Below are positions 3,551 to 24,177 of a DNA stretch of 44,110 bases, piece by piece. The notes under the pieces are model-generated. The model searched no databases. It was not told the origin of the DNA and saw nothing but the letters and a program-made list of their open reading frames with translations. Positions within the stretch are counted from its first letter, which is position 1; every line of letters starts with the position of its first letter. Source of the stretch: Patescibacteria group bacterium UBA661 (GTDB taxonomy: Bacteria; Patescibacteriota; Minisyncoccia; Phycocordibacterales; UBA918); contig DBNX01000017.1 of NCBI GenBank assembly GCA_002299465.1, positions 1 through 44,110 of the forward strand. The letters run 5' to 3'. Both the position numbers and the translations under genes were made by a program.

Positions 3551-4183
3551 ATGAGCAACTTAAATGAAGCCCTGCAGTGGCGTTACGCTACTCAAAAATT
3601 TAATACTGAACAAATTGTAAGCGAATCTGATCTTAATCTGATTATTGAGGCAGGCAACCTAATGCCGACAGCTTATGGTCTTCAGCCCTTTAAATTTGTG
3701 GTAGTAACCGATAAAGCGATCAAAGAATCTTTGGTGGAGCACTCTTACGGACAACGTCATATCGCTGACAATTCACACCTAATCGTCATTGCTGCTCGTA
3801 CTGACGTTGACGAAGCTGCCATCACTGAGTACACAGACCGCATTGAACAAGTCCGTAATTTGGAACCGGGAAGCGTTTCTGGCTTTAAGTCAATTATGGT
3901 TGGGGATCTAACCAACCGCACTGAATCAGACCGTCTAGTCTGGGCACAAAAGCAAGCTTACTTGGCTCTCGGTGGTATGATGGCTGCCGCTTCGATGTTA
4001 AAAATCGACAATCATGCTCTCGAGGGTTTTAATCCGAAAGCTTACAATGACAGCTTGGGATTAGCTGATGAAAATCTACACGCAACAGTGCTTCTCGCTC
4101 TCGGCTACCGTTCCCCTGACGATGCTTGGCAAACCTACGCTAAAGTTCGTAAAGATTTGACAGATTTGGTAATAAGATGCTAA
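3551..4183 (+). CDS. Nitroreductase-family NAD(P)H-dependent oxidoreductase
   Basis: 210 aa. The N-terminal RYATQKF...DLNLIIEAGNLMPTAYGLQPFKFVVV and overall length match the nitroreductase fold family. Confidence 0.85.
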   Translation: MSNLNEALQWRYATQKFNTEQIVSESDLNLIIEAGNLMPTAYGLQPFKFVVVTDKAIKESLVEHSYGQRHIADNSHLIVIAARTDVDEAAITEYTDRIEQVRNLEPGSVSGFKSIMVGDLTNRTESDRLVWAQKQAYLALGGMMAAASMLKIDNHALEGFNPKAYNDSLGLADENLHATVLLALGYRSPDDAWQTYAKVRKDLTDLVIRC

Positions 4184-4193
4184 CCTTAAGCTA

Positions 4194-4817
4194 ATGAATA
4201 AACGTGCTTTGATCATCGCCGGTAGTCTGACTTTGTTGTTTTCGGTGACACTACTTGCCTCAGCACAGTTAGGATGGCTCCCCAACAACGAAAAGCAAAC
4301 CCCCCCCTATTCCGAGACTGAGCCGACTAAAGATTTGTCTTTAGCTAAAGACCACCACTGGCATTTAACTCAAGAAATTACTAACGAACGAGGCTTCATT
4401 GAACATATGATCCCTCACCACCAAGAAGCTGTTGATACTGCTCGAGCAGTACTAGAGCGCGGTGGCAGTATTCCAGAGATAGTTACACTGGCTAACACAA
4501 TTATTGAAACCCAGGAGCGAGAAATCGCCATGATGAAAAGTTGGTATGAATCGTGGTATGGCACACCTTATGTAGACACCGGCGTCTATGTGCCAATGAT
4601 GCGTGATCTTAGCGCTCTCAGTGGTGCCGAGCTGGACCGTGTTTTTCTTGAGGATATGATACCCCACCACATTGCGGCGGTAAAAAAATCCGAGAATCTA
4701 AAACCTTACATTGTCCACCCGGAAATGTCTCTACTTATCGAGTCAGTCATTGCTTCTCAGTCAGCCGAAATCAATCTTATGCGGGAATTACTAACCTCTC
4801 TACCGCAATCACAATAA
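4194..4817 (+). CDS. DUF305-family secreted/anchored protein (four-helix-bundle, His-rich motifs)
   Basis: 207 aa with an N-terminal hydrophobic signal/anchor. The motif is duplicated (FIEHMIPHHQEAV and FLEDMIPHHIAAV), which is characteristic of DUF305. Confidence 0.8.
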   Translation: MNKRALIIAGSLTLLFSVTLLASAQLGWLPNNEKQTPPYSETEPTKDLSLAKDHHWHLTQEITNERGFIEHMIPHHQEAVDTARAVLERGGSIPEIVTLANTIIETQEREIAMMKSWYESWYGTPYVDTGVYVPMMRDLSALSGAELDRVFLEDMIPHHIAAVKKSENLKPYIVHPEMSLLIESVIASQSAEINLMRELLTSLPQSQ

Positions 4818-4841
4818 AGATAAACTCGCCTAGTTAGTAAA

Positions 4842-5075
4842 TCATTCTTCTGTAATTAGACCCAGTTGTTCAACGAATTCCTCATAAGATTCTGTTATAA
4901 GCAAAGCTTCCGTGGGGTAAATTAAACCTTGCGCGTAAGACTTAAGCACACCGGCAATCTCAACATTACTGTAGCCTTTGGCACTAAGTTTTAAAGCCGT
5001 TTCCAACACCAGATTGTCATCTTTAGTACTCTTCATTAGAGCTGCGGCGAACATTTTTTCAAACGGGTGTGCCAT
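4842..5075 (-). CDS. Small hypothetical protein (77 aa)
   Basis: ORF preceded by an extended -10 (TGaTATACT) 10 nt upstream of its ATG. I recognise no family. Confidence 0.5.
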   Translation of the reverse strand: MAHPFEKMFAAALMKSTKDDNLVLETALKLSAKGYSNVEIAGVLKSYAQGLIYPTEALLITESYEEFVEQLGLITEE

Positions 5076-5122
5076 ATTTCCGTGGAGTATATCATTACCC
5101 GGAAAAATGGCACACCCGTTTG
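5060..5122. repeat. 16-bp perfect inverted repeat (CAAACGGGTGTGCCAT / ATGGCACACCCGTTTG) with a 31-nt spacer
   Basis: Arms at 5060-5075 and 5107-5122. The left arm is the start codon plus the first five codons of the 77-aa ORF. The right arm overlaps the -35 regions of both divergent promoters. Confidence 0.7.
5086..5094 (-). promoter_or_regulatory. Extended -10 TGaTATACT, 10 nt upstream of ATG 5075 (leaderless-type)
   Basis: The reverse complement of 5086-5094 reads TGATATACT. Confidence 0.5.
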
Positions 5123-5147
5123 CGTTTTTACTCTATCCACCTACAAT
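5120..5147 (+). promoter_or_regulatory. Candidate promoter TTGCGT-16-TACAAT, 8 nt upstream of the mutM ATG (leaderless-type)
   Basis: -35-like 5120-5125 and -10 5142-5147; ATG at 5156. Confidence 0.5.
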
Positions 5148-5155
5148 ATCCCTAT

Positions 5156-6016
5156 ATGCCAGAATTACCCGAAGTCGAAACGGTCCGCCTCCAGCTCCGC
5201 CAGCAGTTGGTAAAAAAACGCATCAAAGCCGTAACCGTCCTAAATCTCAAAACCGTCAATCACAACAAAAATTTCTCACACCAGCTAGCGGGTAAAGTAA
5301 TCAATGACATTGATCGAATTGGTAAACTAATGATCGTTAGTTTCGCTAAAGAACCAGACTTATTTCTCTTGATCCACTTAAAAATGACCGGGCAATTATT
5401 TTTCAAAAGCCGGGCGGGCGTGCTTGGCGGTGGGCACACGCTAACCGAATCCACCAAACAACTACCCAACAAACACACCCGGGTGGCTTTTACTTTTAGC
5501 GATAACGCCACTTTATTTTTTAATGATATGCGACTTTTTGGTTACGCCAAATTGGTTACAGCTGAAGAATTGGTGGTCATCCGCGCTCGTTTTGGTCAAG
5601 AACCAATCAGTCCTGACTTTGACGGCGCGGACTTTATGCTTAAACTTAAAAAACGAACCGCCACCATCAAAGCCGTTCTGTTAGACCAATCGTTTATCGC
5701 TGGTCTTGGTAATATTTATGTTGACGAAACATTATTTCACGCCACCGTAAGACCCACCAGACGAGCTCATCTGGTCACCAAAACCGAGGCCTTAGCGATT
5801 ATAAAATTTAGCCAAGAAGTCCTAAAACAATCAATCCGCTACGGCGGTACGACCTTCCAGCATTTTCTTGATACCGGCGGTCAAAACGGAAATTACACAG
5901 ACTGTTTGCAAGTTTTTGGAAGACAAAAACTCCCCTGCTTAAAATGCGGTACGCTCATTAAAAAAATTCGTGTGGCTGGACGCGGTACGCATTATTGTCC
6001 AAAATGCCAGCGGTGA
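5156..6016 (+). CDS. mutM: Formamidopyrimidine-DNA glycosylase (Fpg/MutM)
   Basis: The start is set at MPELPEVETV because the catalytic Pro2 must be N-terminal. H2TH region and C-terminal zinc finger CLKCG...YCPKCQ are present. The 29-aa upstream extension in the ORF track is rejected. Confidence 0.92.
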   Translation: MPELPEVETVRLQLRQQLVKKRIKAVTVLNLKTVNHNKNFSHQLAGKVINDIDRIGKLMIVSFAKEPDLFLLIHLKMTGQLFFKSRAGVLGGGHTLTESTKQLPNKHTRVAFTFSDNATLFFNDMRLFGYAKLVTAEELVVIRARFGQEPISPDFDGADFMLKLKKRTATIKAVLLDQSFIAGLGNIYVDETLFHATVRPTRRAHLVTKTEALAIIKFSQEVLKQSIRYGGTTFQHFLDTGGQNGNYTDCLQVFGRQKLPCLKCGTLIKKIRVAGRGTHYCPKCQR

Positions 6017-6069
6017 TTACGCTTTTACCAAGAAGACTCCCTGACCTGTCGCGAAGATAAAAACGTTGA

Positions 6070-6327
6070 TTATTTTTTTCGCTGTCTAGCTTGTCTAAGT
6101 GGCGGACATTTTTGCGGTTCTAAGCCAAGCATACCCCATCTTACCCGACCCCAAGTTCGTTCGTGCAGGTAGTAAAATATTATTTTTGCAGTAACATCAA
6201 TAACACCAACACTGGCCATCAACAGTAAATCACCAGTCATAACATACACCACCAACATCGTAGTGATCGAAGCAATGATTCGCCAAGTAATTCCTTTTAC
6301 AATACTCCGAAAATGCGTCTCTCTCAT
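6070..6327 (-). CDS. DUF2061-family small membrane protein
   Basis: METHFRSIVKGITWRIIASITT...IIFYYLHERTW matches the DUF2061 pattern. The start is set at the second ATG because a TGgTATAAT box overlaps the first one. Confidence 0.72.
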   Translation of the reverse strand: MRETHFRSIVKGITWRIIASITTMLVVYVMTGDLLLMASVGVIDVTAKIIFYYLHERTWGRVRWGMLGLEPQKCPPLRQARQRKK

Positions 6328-6334
6328 AGCGAGC

Positions 6335-6343
6335 ATTATACCA
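6335..6343 (-). promoter_or_regulatory. Extended -10 TGgTATAAT, 7 nt upstream of ATG 6327 (leaderless-type)
   Basis: The reverse complement of 6335-6343 reads TGGTATAAT. Confidence 0.45.
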
Positions 6344-6397
6344 CCAGAGACTGGTGGTCATAATCTAATAGTAGTTGATAGATAAATACAAGCCAAG

Positions 6398-6403
6398 TAA
6401 TAT
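6398..6403 (+). promoter_or_regulatory. -10-like TAATAT, 6 nt upstream of the ung ATG
   Basis: TAATAT at 6398-6403, ATG at 6410, no Shine-Dalgarno. Confidence 0.35.
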
Positions 6404-6409
6404 AGAGAA

Positions 6410-7075
6410 ATGTTGGTGCAAATTGAGCCAAGCTGGCAACTAGCTTTAGAAGAGGAATTCACTAAACCCTACTTCCAATCGCTCGCTTCAGTGGTGAGGC
6501 AATCTTATTTAGACGGTGTTGTTTATCCGCCACCGCAATTAATCTTTAACGCTTTTAAGCTTTGTCCTTTTACCGACACCCGCGTTGTGATACTCGGACA
6601 AGATCCCTATCATGGCCCCAACCAAGCCCACGGGCTTGCTTTTTCTGTTCCCGATGGAGTGAAAACGCCGCCTTCGTTACTGAACATTTTTAAGGAACTT
6701 TCTAGTGACTTAGAGATAACGAAACACGCTACTACCCCCGACCTTACAGACTGGGCGAGGCAAGGTGTGCTGTTGCTTAACGCAACCTTAACGGTACTAC
6801 CCGGACAACCCGGTTCCCACCAAGGCCTTGGCTGGGAAACTTTCACCACCGCCGTCATCAAAACCCTATCTGACCAAAAAAGTAATGTGGTATTTATTCT
6901 CTGGGGCAAGTTTGCCCAAGCCAAACGTGAACTAATTGATTCCACTAAACATTTAATCTTAGAGGCTCCACACCCCTCACCTTTCTCTGCGCACACTGGT
7001 TTTTTTGGTTCACGACCCTTTAGTCAGACTAATCGTTACCTAGAGAAACACGATCTAAAACCAATCCGCTGGTAA
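6410..7075 (+). CDS. ung: Uracil-DNA glycosylase, family 1
   Basis: Catalytic water-activating loop GQDPYHGPNQAHGLAFSV, and HPSPFSA near the C-terminus. Confidence 0.94.
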   Translation: MLVQIEPSWQLALEEEFTKPYFQSLASVVRQSYLDGVVYPPPQLIFNAFKLCPFTDTRVVILGQDPYHGPNQAHGLAFSVPDGVKTPPSLLNIFKELSSDLEITKHATTPDLTDWARQGVLLLNATLTVLPGQPGSHQGLGWETFTTAVIKTLSDQKSNVVFILWGKFAQAKRELIDSTKHLILEAPHPSPFSAHTGFFGSRPFSQTNRYLEKHDLKPIRW

Positions 7076-7076
7076 G

Positions 7077-8579
7077 CTAAGCCAGTCCCGGAAAGAAATC
7101 TTTTTTGATATTTTTAACGCCTAAATCGCGCAGTAGTTTGGTGTAAGCATCCACCATCATCGGTGGTCCAGAAATATACCAAACTCGCTCGAGATAATCA
7201 GGGGCGTGTTTTTTTATAATCTCGGCCGTCAAAAATCCGTACTCATAAAGTGGGATTTTTTCTTTTGCCAACACCGGAATGATTTTCAGTGGTAGAGTTT
7301 GTGTCGATTTCTCCAGCCAATCTTCATAGGCAATCTCCGAAGCAAAATTGTTACAATAAAACAAAATTGTATCCAACTTTGGCACATCGCTAGACATTTG
7401 CATTTGTTCAATTTGACTAATGAATGGCGTTACGCCTATACCACCAGCAATCATGGCTATTTTCTTGTCAGGAAGTGTTGGTAAAAGAAAGTCTCCAGCT
7501 AGCTGGCTAGCAATAATCTTGTCGCCTATTTTCATTTTCCGTAAAGCTTGCTTGTAAGTACTAGTCCTTTCACCTATCCGCACAGTAAAACTTAGAAGTG
7601 GATTAGCGGGAGCGGAAGAAATAGTTAGATAACGTCGCGAACCACGATTATCCGGTGCCTCGTGGGACAACATCCATTCCAGATATTGTCCGGCCCAAAA
7701 ACGCATCCGAGCTGGTTTGTTAAAAGTAAAGACAAAGGTTTCTTTTGCCACTTCGCGAACGGCTACGAGTGGCAAAATTAGTTTTTGTTTCAAGGTTGAG
7801 GGATAGAATAATAGGTTGCCTAAGACCAAGGCCAGTTCGGGTGTCATCTTTATTCCCACTGTCAAAAAAGCGGTTGTCTGAGAAAAGATAGCGACCACGG
7901 CCGCGTAACCCACCTGCAAACCTTTCCGTGGCGGCATAGTAAATGGTTCGGTAAGCATAAAAAAGGCCAAAAATAGACTCGGTCCAGAAAACCAAAAACG
8001 AACTACGGTCTCGTCTGTGATGGTCCCAAAAAAACGCCAGTCCTCAATCAAATAAACTACAAAAGCTACTGTCAGAAAAGTTAAAATCGGAATTTTTTTT
8101 CTTACCTTAGCAACTACCACCACACCCGCGATGAGTAGCGGTATGAATAATTCTCTTTGCCCAATCCACCACGTTGACTCAAAAAACCCAGGAATTGGCA
8201 ATACTTCGTACAAGAGTGCCAATAAAACCAGACCCATGGCGGCCGGATTAAATAGGTGCTGTTTACGCCAAACAAAAATGTATTTAGAAGCGATTGCTAG
8301 TGCCACCACTGCCGCTAATTGCCAAACTTCGCCCACTGCCGTAAGTTGTGGTGGCAAAATAAGAAAGAAGAGAATTAGCCCAGTGATTAGAGCCGATTCG
8401 TGATTGGCGTCTACGTGCCAAAGCTTGCTAAAAATTAAGTTAAGGAGAAGAGCGGTTGCCACCGCCACGATTAGCGCAATTAATTGCTCGGAAGCTCGGT
8501 ACGGTAGCGCCCCCACTGAGCCCAAGAACAGTGAGCAGCCAACCAGAAACAAAAGCGCTAGCGTGACCGTGCGGTACAT
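7077..8579 (-). CDS. Fusion protein: RnfD/NqrB-like polytopic membrane domain plus a C-terminal FNR-like FAD/NAD(P)H-binding reductase domain
   Basis: The N-terminal half has HESALITGLILFFLILPP, LFNPAAMGLVLL and FFMLTEPFTMPP, which resemble conserved RnfD/NqrB blocks. The C-terminal half has RRYLTISS (FAD site-like), MIAGGIGVTPF (NAD(P)H GGxGxxP) and YISGPPMMV. The start is set at MYRTV (8579) because divergent promoter boxes lie inside the longer ORF (to 8714). Confidence 0.75.
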   Translation of the reverse strand: MYRTVTLALLFLVGCSLFLGSVGALPYRASEQLIALIVAVATALLLNLIFSKLWHVDANHESALITGLILFFLILPPQLTAVGEVWQLAAVVALAIASKYIFVWRKQHLFNPAAMGLVLLALLYEVLPIPGFFESTWWIGQRELFIPLLIAGVVVVAKVRKKIPILTFLTVAFVVYLIEDWRFFGTITDETVVRFWFSGPSLFLAFFMLTEPFTMPPRKGLQVGYAAVVAIFSQTTAFLTVGIKMTPELALVLGNLLFYPSTLKQKLILPLVAVREVAKETFVFTFNKPARMRFWAGQYLEWMLSHEAPDNRGSRRYLTISSAPANPLLSFTVRIGERTSTYKQALRKMKIGDKIIASQLAGDFLLPTLPDKKIAMIAGGIGVTPFISQIEQMQMSSDVPKLDTILFYCNNFASEIAYEDWLEKSTQTLPLKIIPVLAKEKIPLYEYGFLTAEIIKKHAPDYLERVWYISGPPMMVDAYTKLLRDLGVKNIKKDFFPGLA

Positions 8580-8655
8580 ACTGATACCATCAAGTTTGTG
8601 TTGTCCTAGACGCCACCAATGCAAAGCCGAATAAGCAACTTTTTTCACAAGATAA

Positions 8656-8664
8656 ATTCTAACA
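8656..8664 (-). promoter_or_regulatory. Extended -10 TGtTAGAAT for the RnfD-FNR fusion gene
   Basis: The reverse complement of 8656-8664 reads TGTTAGAAT, about 75 nt upstream of ATG 8579. Confidence 0.4.
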
Positions 8665-8672
8665 CAAAACAC

Positions 8673-8700
8673 TTGAGTACTTTTATAAGTAAAGTATAAT
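8673..8700 (+). promoter_or_regulatory. Candidate promoter TTGAGT-16-TATAAT for the FMN_bind-like/apbE unit
   Basis: -35 8673-8678 and -10 8695-8700; ATG at 8731. Confidence 0.45.
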
Positions 8701-8730
8701 AGCCAAATAATCACTTAATTAAATATCAGT

Positions 8731-9219
8731 ATGCCAATTGTCGTTGTTATTTTGGGGGTAATTATCATCATTATGGGAGTCGCTTTTTTCTTGATTCCAA
8801 GACCAGCTGATGAAGCGGCCTTACCGCCACCAGTTGCCACCGAAGAAAACAATCGTACGGAAACTATGGAAATAGCTGAGGAGCAAACGGTAGAAACTGA
8901 ACCTCTGCCAAGTATAACCCCAGGCACAATTACTCTTCAGGAAAATGTAACTTATTTAACTCCGGCTCGAACTGAACACCAGCTAGCCGTCACTATGACT
9001 GTCGATAACAATAATATAGTGACTGATGTGAACGTTGTCTACGATGAAACCAATGGTTTTTCTAATGGTCACCAAGAGCGTTTTGATGGTCTTTACAAGG
9101 CCGAAGTAATTGGTAAGCCACTATCAGAAATCTCGCTCTCTCGAGTCGGCGGCGCCTCACTCACCACCGATGCCTTCAATGAAGCCGTGCGCAATATGCT
9201 TGAGCCCCAAGTCAACTAA
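8731..9219 (+). CDS. Membrane-anchored FMN_bind-like (NqrC/RnfG-like) domain protein, putative flavinylation substrate
   Basis: N-terminal TM helix (IVVVILGVIIIIMGVAFFLI) and an acidic/Pro linker. The C-terminal domain has the layout ...VTMTVDNNNIVTDVNVVYDETNGFS...VIGKPLSEISLSRVGGASLTTDAFNEAV. This parallels FMN_bind domains, which end in a [ST]GA[ST] flavin-attachment motif; here it reads GGAS. Confidence 0.6.
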   Translation: MPIVVVILGVIIIIMGVAFFLIPRPADEAALPPPVATEENNRTETMEIAEEQTVETEPLPSITPGTITLQENVTYLTPARTEHQLAVTMTVDNNNIVTDVNVVYDETNGFSNGHQERFDGLYKAEVIGKPLSEISLSRVGGASLTTDAFNEAVRNMLEPQVN

Positions 9220-9226
9220 AAACTCA

Positions 9227-10123
9227 ATGTCGATAGTTCTACCGCCTCTCTCCGCTTTGGGTACTGTCTGGTACGTAGAATTGTTTGATAGTCTCAATCA
9301 AGAAAAGGCGGACGAGACCTCTGGTCTCGTCCGCCTTTTTCTTACCGACTTTGAAGAAAAATACTCTCGCTTCAAACCCCACTCCCTCATCTCCACCCTA
9401 AACAACACCGGCGCCTTAATTAATCCTGACCAAACAACCATTGCCCTGCTCACTCTCGCTCAAAAATTTTACCGCGACACTGGAGGCATCTTTAACCCGC
9501 TCATCGGTGAACACTTACTAGCCCGTGGCTATGATACAAACTACAGCTTTACCCCAAAAACTGAACCGTCAGATTTTCCTTCACCCCTAACCGCCCTCTC
9601 TATTAGTCGAGAAAGTATCAAGCTCACAGCTGGTCAAATTGATTTGGGTGGTTACGGCAAAGGCTGGCTCATTGACCAACTTTCTTTGTTCCTAAGAGAC
9701 CGAGGTTTTCAATATTTTCTTATCAACGGCGGTGGTGATATGTATGCGACCAGTAATTATGATGAACCGATCCCCATCTACCTAGAACATCCCACCTTAC
9801 CCAATACTTACATTGCAGAAACCACACTCAAAAATCAAGGATTTGCTGCCTCAAGTACAGAAAAACGGCGCTGGCAAGTCGCTGGTAAAAAATACTCGCA
9901 CATTGTCGATACCACCAACCCAACCAAAAACTCCTCCGACCTAAATAACGATACCTTTGGCATTTATGTAAAAGCCCCGCTGGCTGTCACCGCTGATGCC
10001 TGGTCAACCACTCTCCTTATTTCAAAACCGGAAACACACCAAGCATTGCTTACCCAAGAGCAAGTAACGCACGCTACCTTTAATGTCCAAAGTGGGACTC
10101 TGATTTCCAGTCCTAATTTCTAA
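9227..10123 (+). CDS. apbE: ApbE-family FAD:protein FMN transferase
   Basis: ApbE blocks IDLGGYGKGWLIDQ, INGGGDMYA, YSHIVDTTNP and ADAWSTTLLI. The start is set at ATG 9227, giving no overlap with the upstream gene. The mature-domain-like LGT motif begins at residue 11, so no signal peptide or lipobox is visible. Confidence 0.85.
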   Translation: MSIVLPPLSALGTVWYVELFDSLNQEKADETSGLVRLFLTDFEEKYSRFKPHSLISTLNNTGALINPDQTTIALLTLAQKFYRDTGGIFNPLIGEHLLARGYDTNYSFTPKTEPSDFPSPLTALSISRESIKLTAGQIDLGGYGKGWLIDQLSLFLRDRGFQYFLINGGGDMYATSNYDEPIPIYLEHPTLPNTYIAETTLKNQGFAASSTEKRRWQVAGKKYSHIVDTTNPTKNSSDLNNDTFGIYVKAPLAVTADAWSTTLLISKPETHQALLTQEQVTHATFNVQSGTLISSPNF

Positions 10124-10395: not shown

Positions 10396-10725
10396 TTATT
10401 TCTCTTCTAGCTGGGCGGCTTTTCTGGCAAAAAGTACAATTTTATTTCCCCCGATGTATTTGCCATTAACTTCAATCCGACAAGCATTACCAAACAAATG
10501 CCAAGCCGAACCGAGAGTAACTTTAATCATATCGTCACCATAAGGAAAAGTAAAAACTGAACCCATGGCCCGAGACGCTGCCACGTCCGTCATATTGTAG
10601 ATGTTCTCCAACATAACCTCGTCATTGATCGTAATTTTTTCAAGAGAATCACCCGACCAGCTCCAACCGTTCTCTACGGTAATCTGATTATTGTCCCAAT
10701 TTGCTTGCCAGGTTTTTACGTTCAT
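10396..10725 (-). CDS. Hypothetical 109-aa protein encoded between atpD and atpC
   Basis: It is the only long ORF in the gap, with exactly 8-nt spacers to the atpD stop and the atpC start. It is Trp/Gly/Asn-rich and looks beta-rich. I recognise no family. Confidence 0.6.
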   Translation of the reverse strand: MNVKTWQANWDNNQITVENGWSWSGDSLEKITINDEVMLENIYNMTDVAASRAMGSVFTFPYGDDMIKVTLGSAWHLFGNACRIEVNGKYIGGNKIVLFARKAAQLEEK

Positions 10726-15726: not shown

Positions 15727-16011
<285 letters not shown>

Positions 16012-23397: not shown

Positions 23398-24177
23398 ATG
23401 GAACCAAACTTTACACCCAATAATAATCAAAATTCTGTTGTTATACCGATCGCCATCGTAGCTGGTTTTGGCTTGATTGCTTTAGCTATTTACTTTAGTG
23501 GACTAGGCGGAACCAGAGTAGCCACCGCCCCCACTGCCGCTCCTCAGCCAGCCACCGCACCCCAAGCTACTGGCCAAATCAGACCAGTAGACGAGACCGA
23601 TTTTATTAAAGGTAATCCTAACGCCCCGATTTTAATTGTCGAGTATTCAGACTATGAATGTGTTTTTTGTAAGCAATTTCACGAGACAATGCACCGCATT
23701 ATGAGCGAGTACGGTATCAACGGTAACGTAGCGTGGGTATATCGGCAATTTCCCATCACCCAACTTCACCCCAATTCCGAAAGAATCTCGGAAACTGCGC
23801 TTTGTGTCGGTGAAGTAGGTGGCAACGAAGCTTTTTGGAAATTTACTGACAATTTATTCTTTGGTCGAGAAGCTGGTGAGAGAATCGACGTTGCTCAATT
23901 ACCAGTCTACGCCGAAGTGGCTGGTGTACCCCGCGCCGAACTTTTAAGTTGCCTAGACTCTGGCAGACAAAGAACTGTCTTGGAGGCTTCGATCGCTGAT
24001 GGTATACAGGCGGGTGTTCAGGGAACTCCACAGTCATTCATAATTGTCGGCAACCAAATGGAAGCCATCAACGGCGCTCAACCCTATGCTGTTATGAAAG
24101 GAATTATCGACAGTCTATTGGCACAACTAGCTGGTGGCGCTGCCACTCCCCCACCCGCTCCAGCTTCTCCTCAGTAA
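23398..24177 (+). CDS. Membrane-anchored DsbA-family thiol:disulfide oxidoreductase
   Basis: N-terminal TM helix, Ala/Pro linker, and thioredoxin-fold active site YSDYECVFCKQF (CxxC). Confidence 0.82.
   Translation: MEPNFTPNNNQNSVVIPIAIVAGFGLIALAIYFSGLGGTRVATAPTAAPQPATAPQATGQIRPVDETDFIKGNPNAPILIVEYSDYECVFCKQFHETMHRIMSEYGINGNVAWVYRQFPITQLHPNSERISETALCVGEVGGNEAFWKFTDNLFFGREAGERIDVAQLPVYAEVAGVPRAELLSCLDSGRQRTVLEASIADGIQAGVQGTPQSFIIVGNQMEAINGAQPYAVMKGIIDSLLAQLAGGAATPPPAPASPQ

Follow-up and report, generated by a model that had tools for sequence, protein, structure and literature searches.

A fused RnfD/NqrB-like and FNR-type flavoprotein with its FMN_bind partner and ApbE in a Patescibacteria contig: a member of the NQR/RNF-like class

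Bacteria of the candidate phyla radiation (CPR), or Patescibacteria, lack respiratory chains and quinones, and it is an open question by what means NAD+ is regenerated and the membrane energised in these cells. Three adjacent genes that bear on this question lie on contig DBNX01000017.1 of Patescibacteria group bacterium UBA661 (assembly GCA_002299465.1); they encode a fusion of an RnfD/NqrB-like membrane domain with a ferredoxin-NADP-reductase (FNR)-type domain, a membrane-anchored FMN_bind protein and an ApbE flavin transferase. The stretch analysed here, referred to as the window, comprises 44,110 nucleotides with a GC content of about 45%, and its closest relatives are metagenome-assembled genomes (MAGs) of Patescibacteria, of Paceibacteria and Kaiserbacteria type. 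An earlier note, made from the sequence of the window, had read the trio as an NAD(P)H-to-membrane flavin relay and implied that its architecture was new. Our analysis supports the relay and withdraws the novelty: the features that define the known NQR/RNF-like class place the locus in it, and the mechanistic reading, which is reasonable and agrees with the literature, re-derives a published hypothesis.

In 2021, Meheust et al. (eLife, PMC8238504) gave the name NQR/RNF-like system to a fusion of PF03116 with PF00175 that lies within a flavinylation gene cluster, and so had already described this fusion beside FMN_bind and ApbE. They counted 127 such clusters, mainly in Actinobacteria and CPR, using a pipeline that required a predicted signal peptide in the cluster, and CPR were called “strikingly underrepresented”. 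In 2024, Huang et al. (mSystems, PMC11334425 / PMC10979944) obtained a high-confidence AlphaFold-multimer complex of the Ktedonobacter racemifer proteins, reported that the flavinylation Thr of NqrB/RnfD is not conserved, and proposed that the covalent flavin of the partner samples the flavin site of the membrane subunit, so that the model of a lost Thr and a partner flavin was also in print. The window agrees with the class in the following respects: PF03116 and PF00175 lie on one polypeptide, a pair that the homologs share; FMN_bind (PF04205) and ApbE (PF02424), found within five genes in the class, are both directly adjacent here; there are only two structural subunits; the flavinylated Thr of NqrB/RnfD is not conserved; and the system occurs in CPR.

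The three open reading frames (ORFs) are all present where the earlier note had placed them, with intact reading frames, and the motifs that it quoted (HESALITGL..LPP, LFNPAAMG, FFMLTEPFTMPP, RRYLTISS, GGIGVTPF, SGPPMM and VGGASLTT) were all verified. When the profile hidden Markov model (HMM) check that it had proposed was run, the N-terminal half of the fusion fell in the RnfD/NqrB family and the 162-aa protein in FMN_bind, both above cut-off. For the polytopic membrane domain, PF03116 (NQR2_RnfD_RnfE) scored 43.2 bits against a cut-off of 27.7. An AlphaFold2 model of the full-length fusion, built with the family alignment, reached a pLDDT of 88 and a pTM of 0.78, and the membrane half modelled alone a pLDDT of 87 and a pTM of 0.84, showing an N-terminal amphipathic helix followed by about 10 transmembrane (TM) helices. 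The domain-only model was used for the fold search, as FNR matches swamped the full-length one, and its 15 best Foldseek matches in the PDB were exclusively RnfD chains (9eri_D, 8rbq_D, 8ahx_D, 7zc6_D) or NqrB chains, with E-values from 1e-5 to 5e-4 and query-normalised TM-scores of 0.50-0.69; the next neighbours, urea and Amt channels, had E-values above 0.07. In hhalign, the family profile aligned with E. coli RsxD over the whole domain (95.8% probability, E=3.4e-9). When phmmer was run on PDB sequences with the membrane domain as a single query, neither NqrB nor RnfD was found, and a profile search of the same sequences reached RnfD only at E=0.095; the homology is established through Pfam, hhalign and the fold search. 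An unnamed 200-aa “Membrane protein” (PDB 6bhp_A) matched the “FESTWWIGQRELFIPLL” region (fusion aa ~155-214) weakly, with an E-value of about 0.02-0.05, probably by chance.

The flavinylation loop is gone from the RnfD-like domain, as the earlier note had suspected. Residues 157-192 of RsxD, which hold GIDGISQAT187PLD and thereby T187, the equivalent of the flavinylated Thr of RnfD, are without counterpart in the family, and no flavinylation-type motif ([STG]G[AS][ST]) occurs in the fusion protein. What is left of the deleted loop reads GFFESTWWIG, in which the E and the WW are invariant or nearly so. The distribution of Lys and Arg over the predicted helices places the N-terminus, the even-numbered loops and the FNR linker inside (N-in, C-in) and the vestigial loop on the outer face, and an external docking site is consistent with this arrangement. 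An “SGPS” motif, considered as a cryptic flavinylation site of the fusion, was rejected since it aligns with “SGAT” of RsxD (276-279) within a TM helix and not with T187. The NCBIfam rnfD model (TIGR01946) matched the membrane half only partially, at 25.7 bits, and did not reach its cut-off of 207. With the Thr loop missing, a score far under the subfamily cut-off and the partner subunits missing, the membrane protein is not a canonical RnfD or NqrB. On the last point, the 44-kb window holds no other nqr or rnf subunit, as the earlier note had stated, and canonical rnfABCDGE or nqrABCDEF genes were neither found in it nor seen to recur in the 80 related loci described below.

The C-terminal half of the fusion is a ferredoxin-NADP-reductase-like module, with PF00175 (NAD_binding_1) scoring 42.1 bits against a cut-off of 22. 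AlphaFold2 modelled it as a six-stranded barrel and a Rossmann fold (pLDDT 88), and it carries RRYLTISS (the RxY[ST] FAD motif), GGIGVTPF (the GxGxxP NAD motif) and SGPPMM, together with a C-terminal DFFPGLA that is conserved in the alignment of homologs; these four elements are typical of the FNR superfamily. NCBIfam gave partial, sub-threshold matches to BenC, Hmp and NqrF; the PDB sequence matches included GcoB, NqrF and b5 reductase; and the Foldseek matches included flavohemoglobin (Hmp), NqrF, FNR, b5 reductase and the dehydrogenase domain of the Streptococcus pneumoniae NADPH oxidase SpNOX. BenC was also among the PDB matches. PF00970 (FAD_binding_6) was called in some homologs and not in the window fusion, in which a weak NAD_binding_6 match was also seen. 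An Fe-S domain is absent, because the fusion has only two Cys, in line with the absence of Cys clusters that the earlier note had recorded.

The 162-aa protein is an FMN_bind protein (PF04205, 27.6 bits, cut-off 22). Its description as “NqrC/RnfG-like” holds for the FMN_bind domain, the N-terminal anchor and the presence of a variant site, but not for subfamily membership, as neither the nqrC nor the rnfG model of NCBIfam matched it. A hydrophobic helix (aa 3-23) is followed by an acidic, Pro-rich linker and by the FMN_bind domain (aa ~68-160). Among 21 aligned homologs of the window’s subclade, LSRVGGAS(L)T is essentially invariant, and in the wider partner family the equivalent position reads DxxSGA[ST] or TKVSGSS. 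With a broad family profile, S143 of the window protein aligns with T175 of E. coli RsxG (FTGAT), and S143 is for this reason the predicted acceptor of the FMN phosphoester; hhalign of the partner profiles to RsxG was weak (0.5-4.9% probability). The earlier proposal of the separate FMN_bind protein as the flavinylated partner is upheld as a prediction. Most close partner homologs among 200 are annotated “hypothetical”, a few being labelled RodZ or E2 component, and no natural FMN_bind fusion that might fix the topology was found among these 200. Most partners other than that of the window begin, like NqrC and RnfG, with MKK and a hydrophobic helix, and are accordingly predicted to be C-out (N-in).

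The third gene encodes an ApbE, as had been proposed (PF02424, 126 bits, covering profile positions 2-259 of 266). Its domain starts at residue 12. The protein has neither a signal peptide nor a lipobox nor a TM segment, and extending the frame upstream to TTG 9110 adds only hydrophilic sequence. A programmed frameshift or an upstream start that would give ApbE a signal, or fuse it to FMN_bind, was rejected in view of this hydrophilic extension and of the fact that most loci start ApbE right after the FMN_bind stop codon.

How widely is this trio kept? At least 546 loci in species-representative genomes matched, and the locus-level counts given here refer to the 80 loci that were retrieved. 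More than 1,000 full-length homologs of the fusion carry the same Pfam pair (word-indexed search), and an exhaustive HMM search of 1.84 billion cluster representatives yielded ~1,400 clusters at 50% identity (E<=1e-30). Within the fusion family, column identity averages about 60%, and many motif residues do not vary. The FMN_bind partner stands next to the fusion in 73 of the 80 loci and ApbE in 70, which answers the neighbour-conservation check that the earlier note had proposed. Two gene orders occur: in the window and its closest relatives the fusion diverges from FMN_bind-ApbE, and in most other loci FMN_bind, ApbE and the fusion follow one another in this order in a co-directional operon, in which stop and start codons often overlap. 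Among the carriers are many CPR lineages, the isolate Mesorhizobium humile, Devosia, Hyphomicrobiales, Chloroflexia, Anaerolineae, Thermoleophilia and a Spirochaetia MAG. The numbers of CPR were probably under-counted earlier, because the 2021 pipeline demanded a signal peptide and most CPR partners fall below the Pfam FMN_bind threshold.

This conservation decides on a first alternative, namely that the genes are the decayed remnant of an rnf or nqr operon, either fragments without a function or a channel or transporter to which a reductase was fused by chance. The membrane domain is indeed shorter than RnfD and, at 25.7 versus 207, far under the rnfD cut-off, and its more distant structural neighbours are urea and Amt channels; however, an architecture kept in this many proteins and clusters at the identity given above, co-inherited with FMN_bind and ApbE across phyla and with intact frames, effectively refutes it, and we regard decay as barely credible.

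We consider it probable, with some reserve, that the trio works as in the published type of model, in which electrons pass from NAD(P)H through FAD, a membrane flavin site and an external covalent FMN to an acceptor. Cytoplasmic NAD(P)H would reduce the FAD of the C-terminal FNR-type domain of the fusion, and the electrons would enter the RnfD/NqrB-fold domain, probably via a non-covalent flavin on its cytoplasmic side, to arrive at the outer face, where the covalent-FMN loop is deleted and the invariant Glu/Trp-Trp vestige is left. ApbE would attach FMN to Ser143 of the membrane-anchored FMN_bind protein, and this covalent FMN would occupy the vacant outer site; the partner, on a flexible linker of ~45 residues, would then pass the electrons to an extracytosolic acceptor, for which Fe(III) or Cu(II), O2, a quinone or flavin, or a redox-repair protein are candidates. 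A fermentative CPR cell would, on balance, regenerate NAD(P)+ independently of quinones or gain a supply of reducing power outside.

Several points weigh against this electron path. We found no biochemistry on any NQR/RNF-like member in the literature, and when all ORFs of the 80 loci were clustered only the trio was universal, with no conserved acceptor gene nearby. The FMN_bind call lies just 5.6 bits over its threshold and most close homologs receive no Pfam call, while the window partner has no N-terminal positive charges, its orientation being based on its acidic C-flank and on homology. A further point concerns maturation. None of the 70 cluster ApbEs in which the N-terminus of the domain is present has an N-terminal hydrophobic segment: 63 have at most 20 residues before the domain even in the maximal ORF, and the other 7 are without a hydrophobic stretch. 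By the same test, 72 of 75 partners do have such a segment. As encoded, ApbE is unable to attach flavin to a domain once that domain lies outside.

The canonical ApbE is itself exported, as a lipoprotein, and so are its targets (PMC12052999). Here, a cytoplasmic transferase appears to serve an exported substrate, given that the ApbEs lack export signals and the partners are predicted to be N-in/C-out, a problem that is not discussed in the published NQR/RNF-like models (PMC8238504, PMC11334425), which put the flavinylated subunit outside. Possible resolutions are that the C-terminal motif is flavinylated before or during Sec export, that the FMN_bind domain is cytoplasmic, or that a second, exported ApbE is encoded elsewhere in the genome. 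Tat export of a pre-flavinylated partner was rejected, as the partner N-termini contain no twin-arginine motif.

The second of these resolutions amounts to an inverted topology, which we hold to be unlikely. Both flavinylation and the FMN_bind domain would be cytoplasmic, the linker-borne FMN serving as a swinging arm from the FAD of the FNR domain to the cytoplasmic flavin site of the RnfD-like domain, and the membrane domain alone would take the electrons to a membrane or external acceptor. Such an arrangement would suit the lack of export signals in all cluster ApbEs and the tight or translational coupling of FMN_bind and ApbE; in Klebsiella pneumoniae, there are ApbEs that stay in the cytosol and modify targets there (PMC12052999), and the linkers, rich in Ala, Pro, Thr and Glu, look like those of swinging-arm domains in the cytoplasm, with one homolog auto-annotated as an E2 component. 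It is opposed, however, by the MKK-plus-helix N-terminus of most partners, by the outward-facing FMN-loop vestige with its invariant WW, and by the published AlphaFold-multimer model, which docks the partner extracytosolically (PMC11334425).

A further question is whether the electron transfer is coupled to ion export. A minimal redox-driven ion pump, in which NqrB-like electron transfer would export H+ or Na+, as has been proposed for NqrB of Na+-NQR, and energise the adjacent ATP synthase, fits either topology; we judge it improbable, an estimate that is not exclusive of the other readings. The RnfD/NqrB fold is the proposed ion path of Rnf and Nqr, and the top structural matches of the membrane domain are sodium-pumping complexes. 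Besides, the aligned homologues share invariant polar or charged residues in the predicted TM segments (N82, E84, K122, Q130, H131, N134-P and E234), and the atp operon lies immediately beside the trio in the window and in a few relatives. Nevertheless, adjacency to atpC/atpD is seen in a few loci, for the most part close relatives, and most of the 80 do not have it; and NqrD/E and RnfA/E, needed for the coupled half-loop of known pumps, are absent from the window.

The ligand motif of Na+-binding c-rings is known from studies of the Ilyobacter tartaricus c-ring. The c subunit in the window (15727-15990, minus strand; GPGIAIG...FVEALAIF) lacks this signature, having no Gln, Ser/Thr or Tyr at the ligand positions, and the ATP synthase therefore looks H+-coupled. 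A Na+ cycle with the neighbouring ATP synthase was rejected on these grounds, and H+ pumping by the NqrB-like core is at most a possibility. Beyond local synteny, we find no support for a link of the trio to the ATP synthase or for an energy role, the c subunit being of H+ type and the atp adjacency confined to few loci. Between atpC and atpD lies a 109-aa ORF (10396-10725, minus strand) with no Pfam match and no homolog in the 80 related loci; in two relatives (L002 and L003) the atpD-atpC gap is too short to hold it.

For the fusion gene, the ORF that the earlier note had placed at 7077-8579 stands, but its start is probably the GTG at 8648 (8646-8648) rather than the ATG at 8579. In an alignment of 23 homologs, a conserved extension of ~20 residues lies upstream of this ATG and ends in “LD...MYRTV”; the GTG supplies it, and the ATG is the conservative start. 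The maximal ORF, to 8714, encodes 545 aa and is the form recorded by gene callers. We place the gene at 7077-8648, probably starting at the GTG, because the extension is conserved in homologs and the 545-aa ORF would overlap the divergent promoter, a sigma70-like element that matches at 10 of 12 positions and lies 30 nt upstream of the FMN_bind ATG. The features are collected in Table 1.

Table 1. Positions of the trio and of its parts in the window
Feature	Position	Strand	Details
Fusion gene, RnfD/NqrB-like + FNR-type	7077..8648	-	523 aa from probable GTG
RnfD/NqrB-like membrane domain, flavinylation loop gone	7785..8648	-	PF03116, AlphaFold2 model, Foldseek, hhalign
FNR-type FAD/NAD(P)H reductase domain	7077..7784	-	PF00175, PDB sequence matches, Foldseek
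Divergent intergenic region	8649..8730	.	82 bp; common to two divergent transcription units
Sigma70-like promoter of the FMN_bind-ApbE operon	8673-8700	+	TTGAGT-16-TATAAT
Membrane-anchored FMN_bind protein, 162 aa	8731..9219	+	PF04205
Predicted flavinylation site V139-G-G-A-S143	9145..9159	+	S143 codon 9157-9159
ApbE flavin transferase, 298 aa	9227..10123	+	PF02424

Around the trio, the largest extra ORF clusters in the 80 loci are antisense shadow ORFs, and sporadic neighbours include a histidine kinase and response regulator, an extracytoplasmic-function (ECF) sigma factor, MacAB-like exporters, a D-2-hydroxyacid dehydrogenase, a P-type ATPase, MsrA and a His-rich membrane protein. The last is a membrane-anchored protein of ~208 aa (HVHSDF, HAHVHLHD, HRHDHG), encoded 40-660 nt from the trio in four loci, all CPR (L007, at 4510-5136, L012, L016 and L017), and could be a metal-binding partner or acceptor. 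In five loci (L024, L026, L045, L047 and L049), a D-isomer 2-hydroxyacid (lactate-type) dehydrogenase adjoins the fusion in most, ApbE being distant or absent in all of them except L024; this adjacency suggests a link to NADH/NAD+ balance. In four Mesorhizobium/Hyphomicrobiales loci (L040, L041, L073 and L078), a histidine kinase, a response regulator and a small, maybe PepSY-like protein lie downstream of the fusion, at 5-15 nt on the opposite strand, and the FMN_bind partners have Pro/Ala-rich linkers of ~150 aa.

In the window itself, positions 3551-7075, directly upstream of the trio, encode a nitroreductase, a DUF305 protein, MutM/Fpg, a DUF2061 membrane protein and uracil-DNA glycosylase. 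The glycosylase, MutM and DUF2061 flank the trio only in close relatives, the glycosylase-MutM pair in 6-7 loci, which may reflect no more than synteny or, loosely, a common theme of oxidative damage. A DsbA-like thioredoxin-fold protein (PF13462, PF01323) is encoded at 23398-24177 (plus strand), with no DsbB-type partner evident in the window.

Compared with the NQR/RNF-like system as published, the window subclade differs in its divergent gene order, in an SRVGGAS site instead of DxxSGAT, and in a partner that mostly escapes Pfam. Its ApbE has no export signal, as in the rest of the surveyed family and without discussion in the papers, and the family is far above the 127 clusters of 2021, with the species loci and 50%-identity clusters reported here.

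With Na+-NQR (NqrA-F) and Rnf (RnfABCDGE), the trio shares the NqrB/RnfD fold, a reductase homologous to the FAD/NADH part of NqrF, an FMN_bind partner with an N-terminal anchor like NqrC and RnfG, and maturation by ApbE. In contrast, the window has no NqrA, NqrD, NqrE or RnfA, RnfB, RnfC, RnfE and the system no Fe-S centres; its membrane domain is without covalent FMN, the reductase is fused directly to the NqrB-like subunit, and one-way electron flow is expected rather than a U-shaped loop.

The NOX and ferric reductases (SpNOX, PDB 8qq7 and 8qt6) and Fre-MsrQ likewise combine an N-terminal TM redox domain with a C-terminal FNR-type dehydrogenase and carry electrons from cytoplasmic NAD(P)H to the outside, as proposed here, and the best structural matches of the fusion include the dehydrogenase domain of SpNOX. 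Their six-helix di-heme membrane domain, however, is unrelated to the RnfD/NqrB fold of the window, which is presumably flavin-based, and the window system needs a separate, covalently flavinylated partner. Flavin-based extracellular electron transfer in Listeria monocytogenes (Ndh2, EetA/B, FmnB, PplA) also serves a fermentative organism and exports NADH electrons to an ApbE-flavinylated, membrane-tethered FMN_bind protein that reduces external acceptors; it differs in having a quinone pool and other membrane proteins, and in that its ApbE homolog, FmnB, is an exported lipoprotein.

It is possible, though doubtful, that the dedicated ApbE is truly cytoplasmic, flavinylation taking place before or during Sec export or on a cytoplasmic swinging arm, and that the RnfD-like core is, in addition, perhaps coupled to H+ export. 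If this were true, attaching the flavin ahead of Sec export or in its course would amount to a new way of maturation in which no FAD export is needed, and no NQR-type energy converter would be smaller than an H+-coupled two-protein unit, which would also provide membrane potential to CPR bacteria without a respiratory chain.

With its class already in the literature, the locus alone adds little; what the survey adds is a CPR family larger than first reported, a maturation problem in the extracytosolic model, and cultured carriers for testing, such as Mesorhizobium humile VK2B and Ktedonobacter racemifer. For the CPR bacteria themselves, a two-protein, quinone-independent flavin conduit from NAD(P)H to the outside, widespread in these lineages, is a plausible part of the answer to how NAD+ is regenerated and the membrane energised, and it may serve to dispose of electrons, to reduce metals, to feed redox repair or, conceivably, to pump ions.

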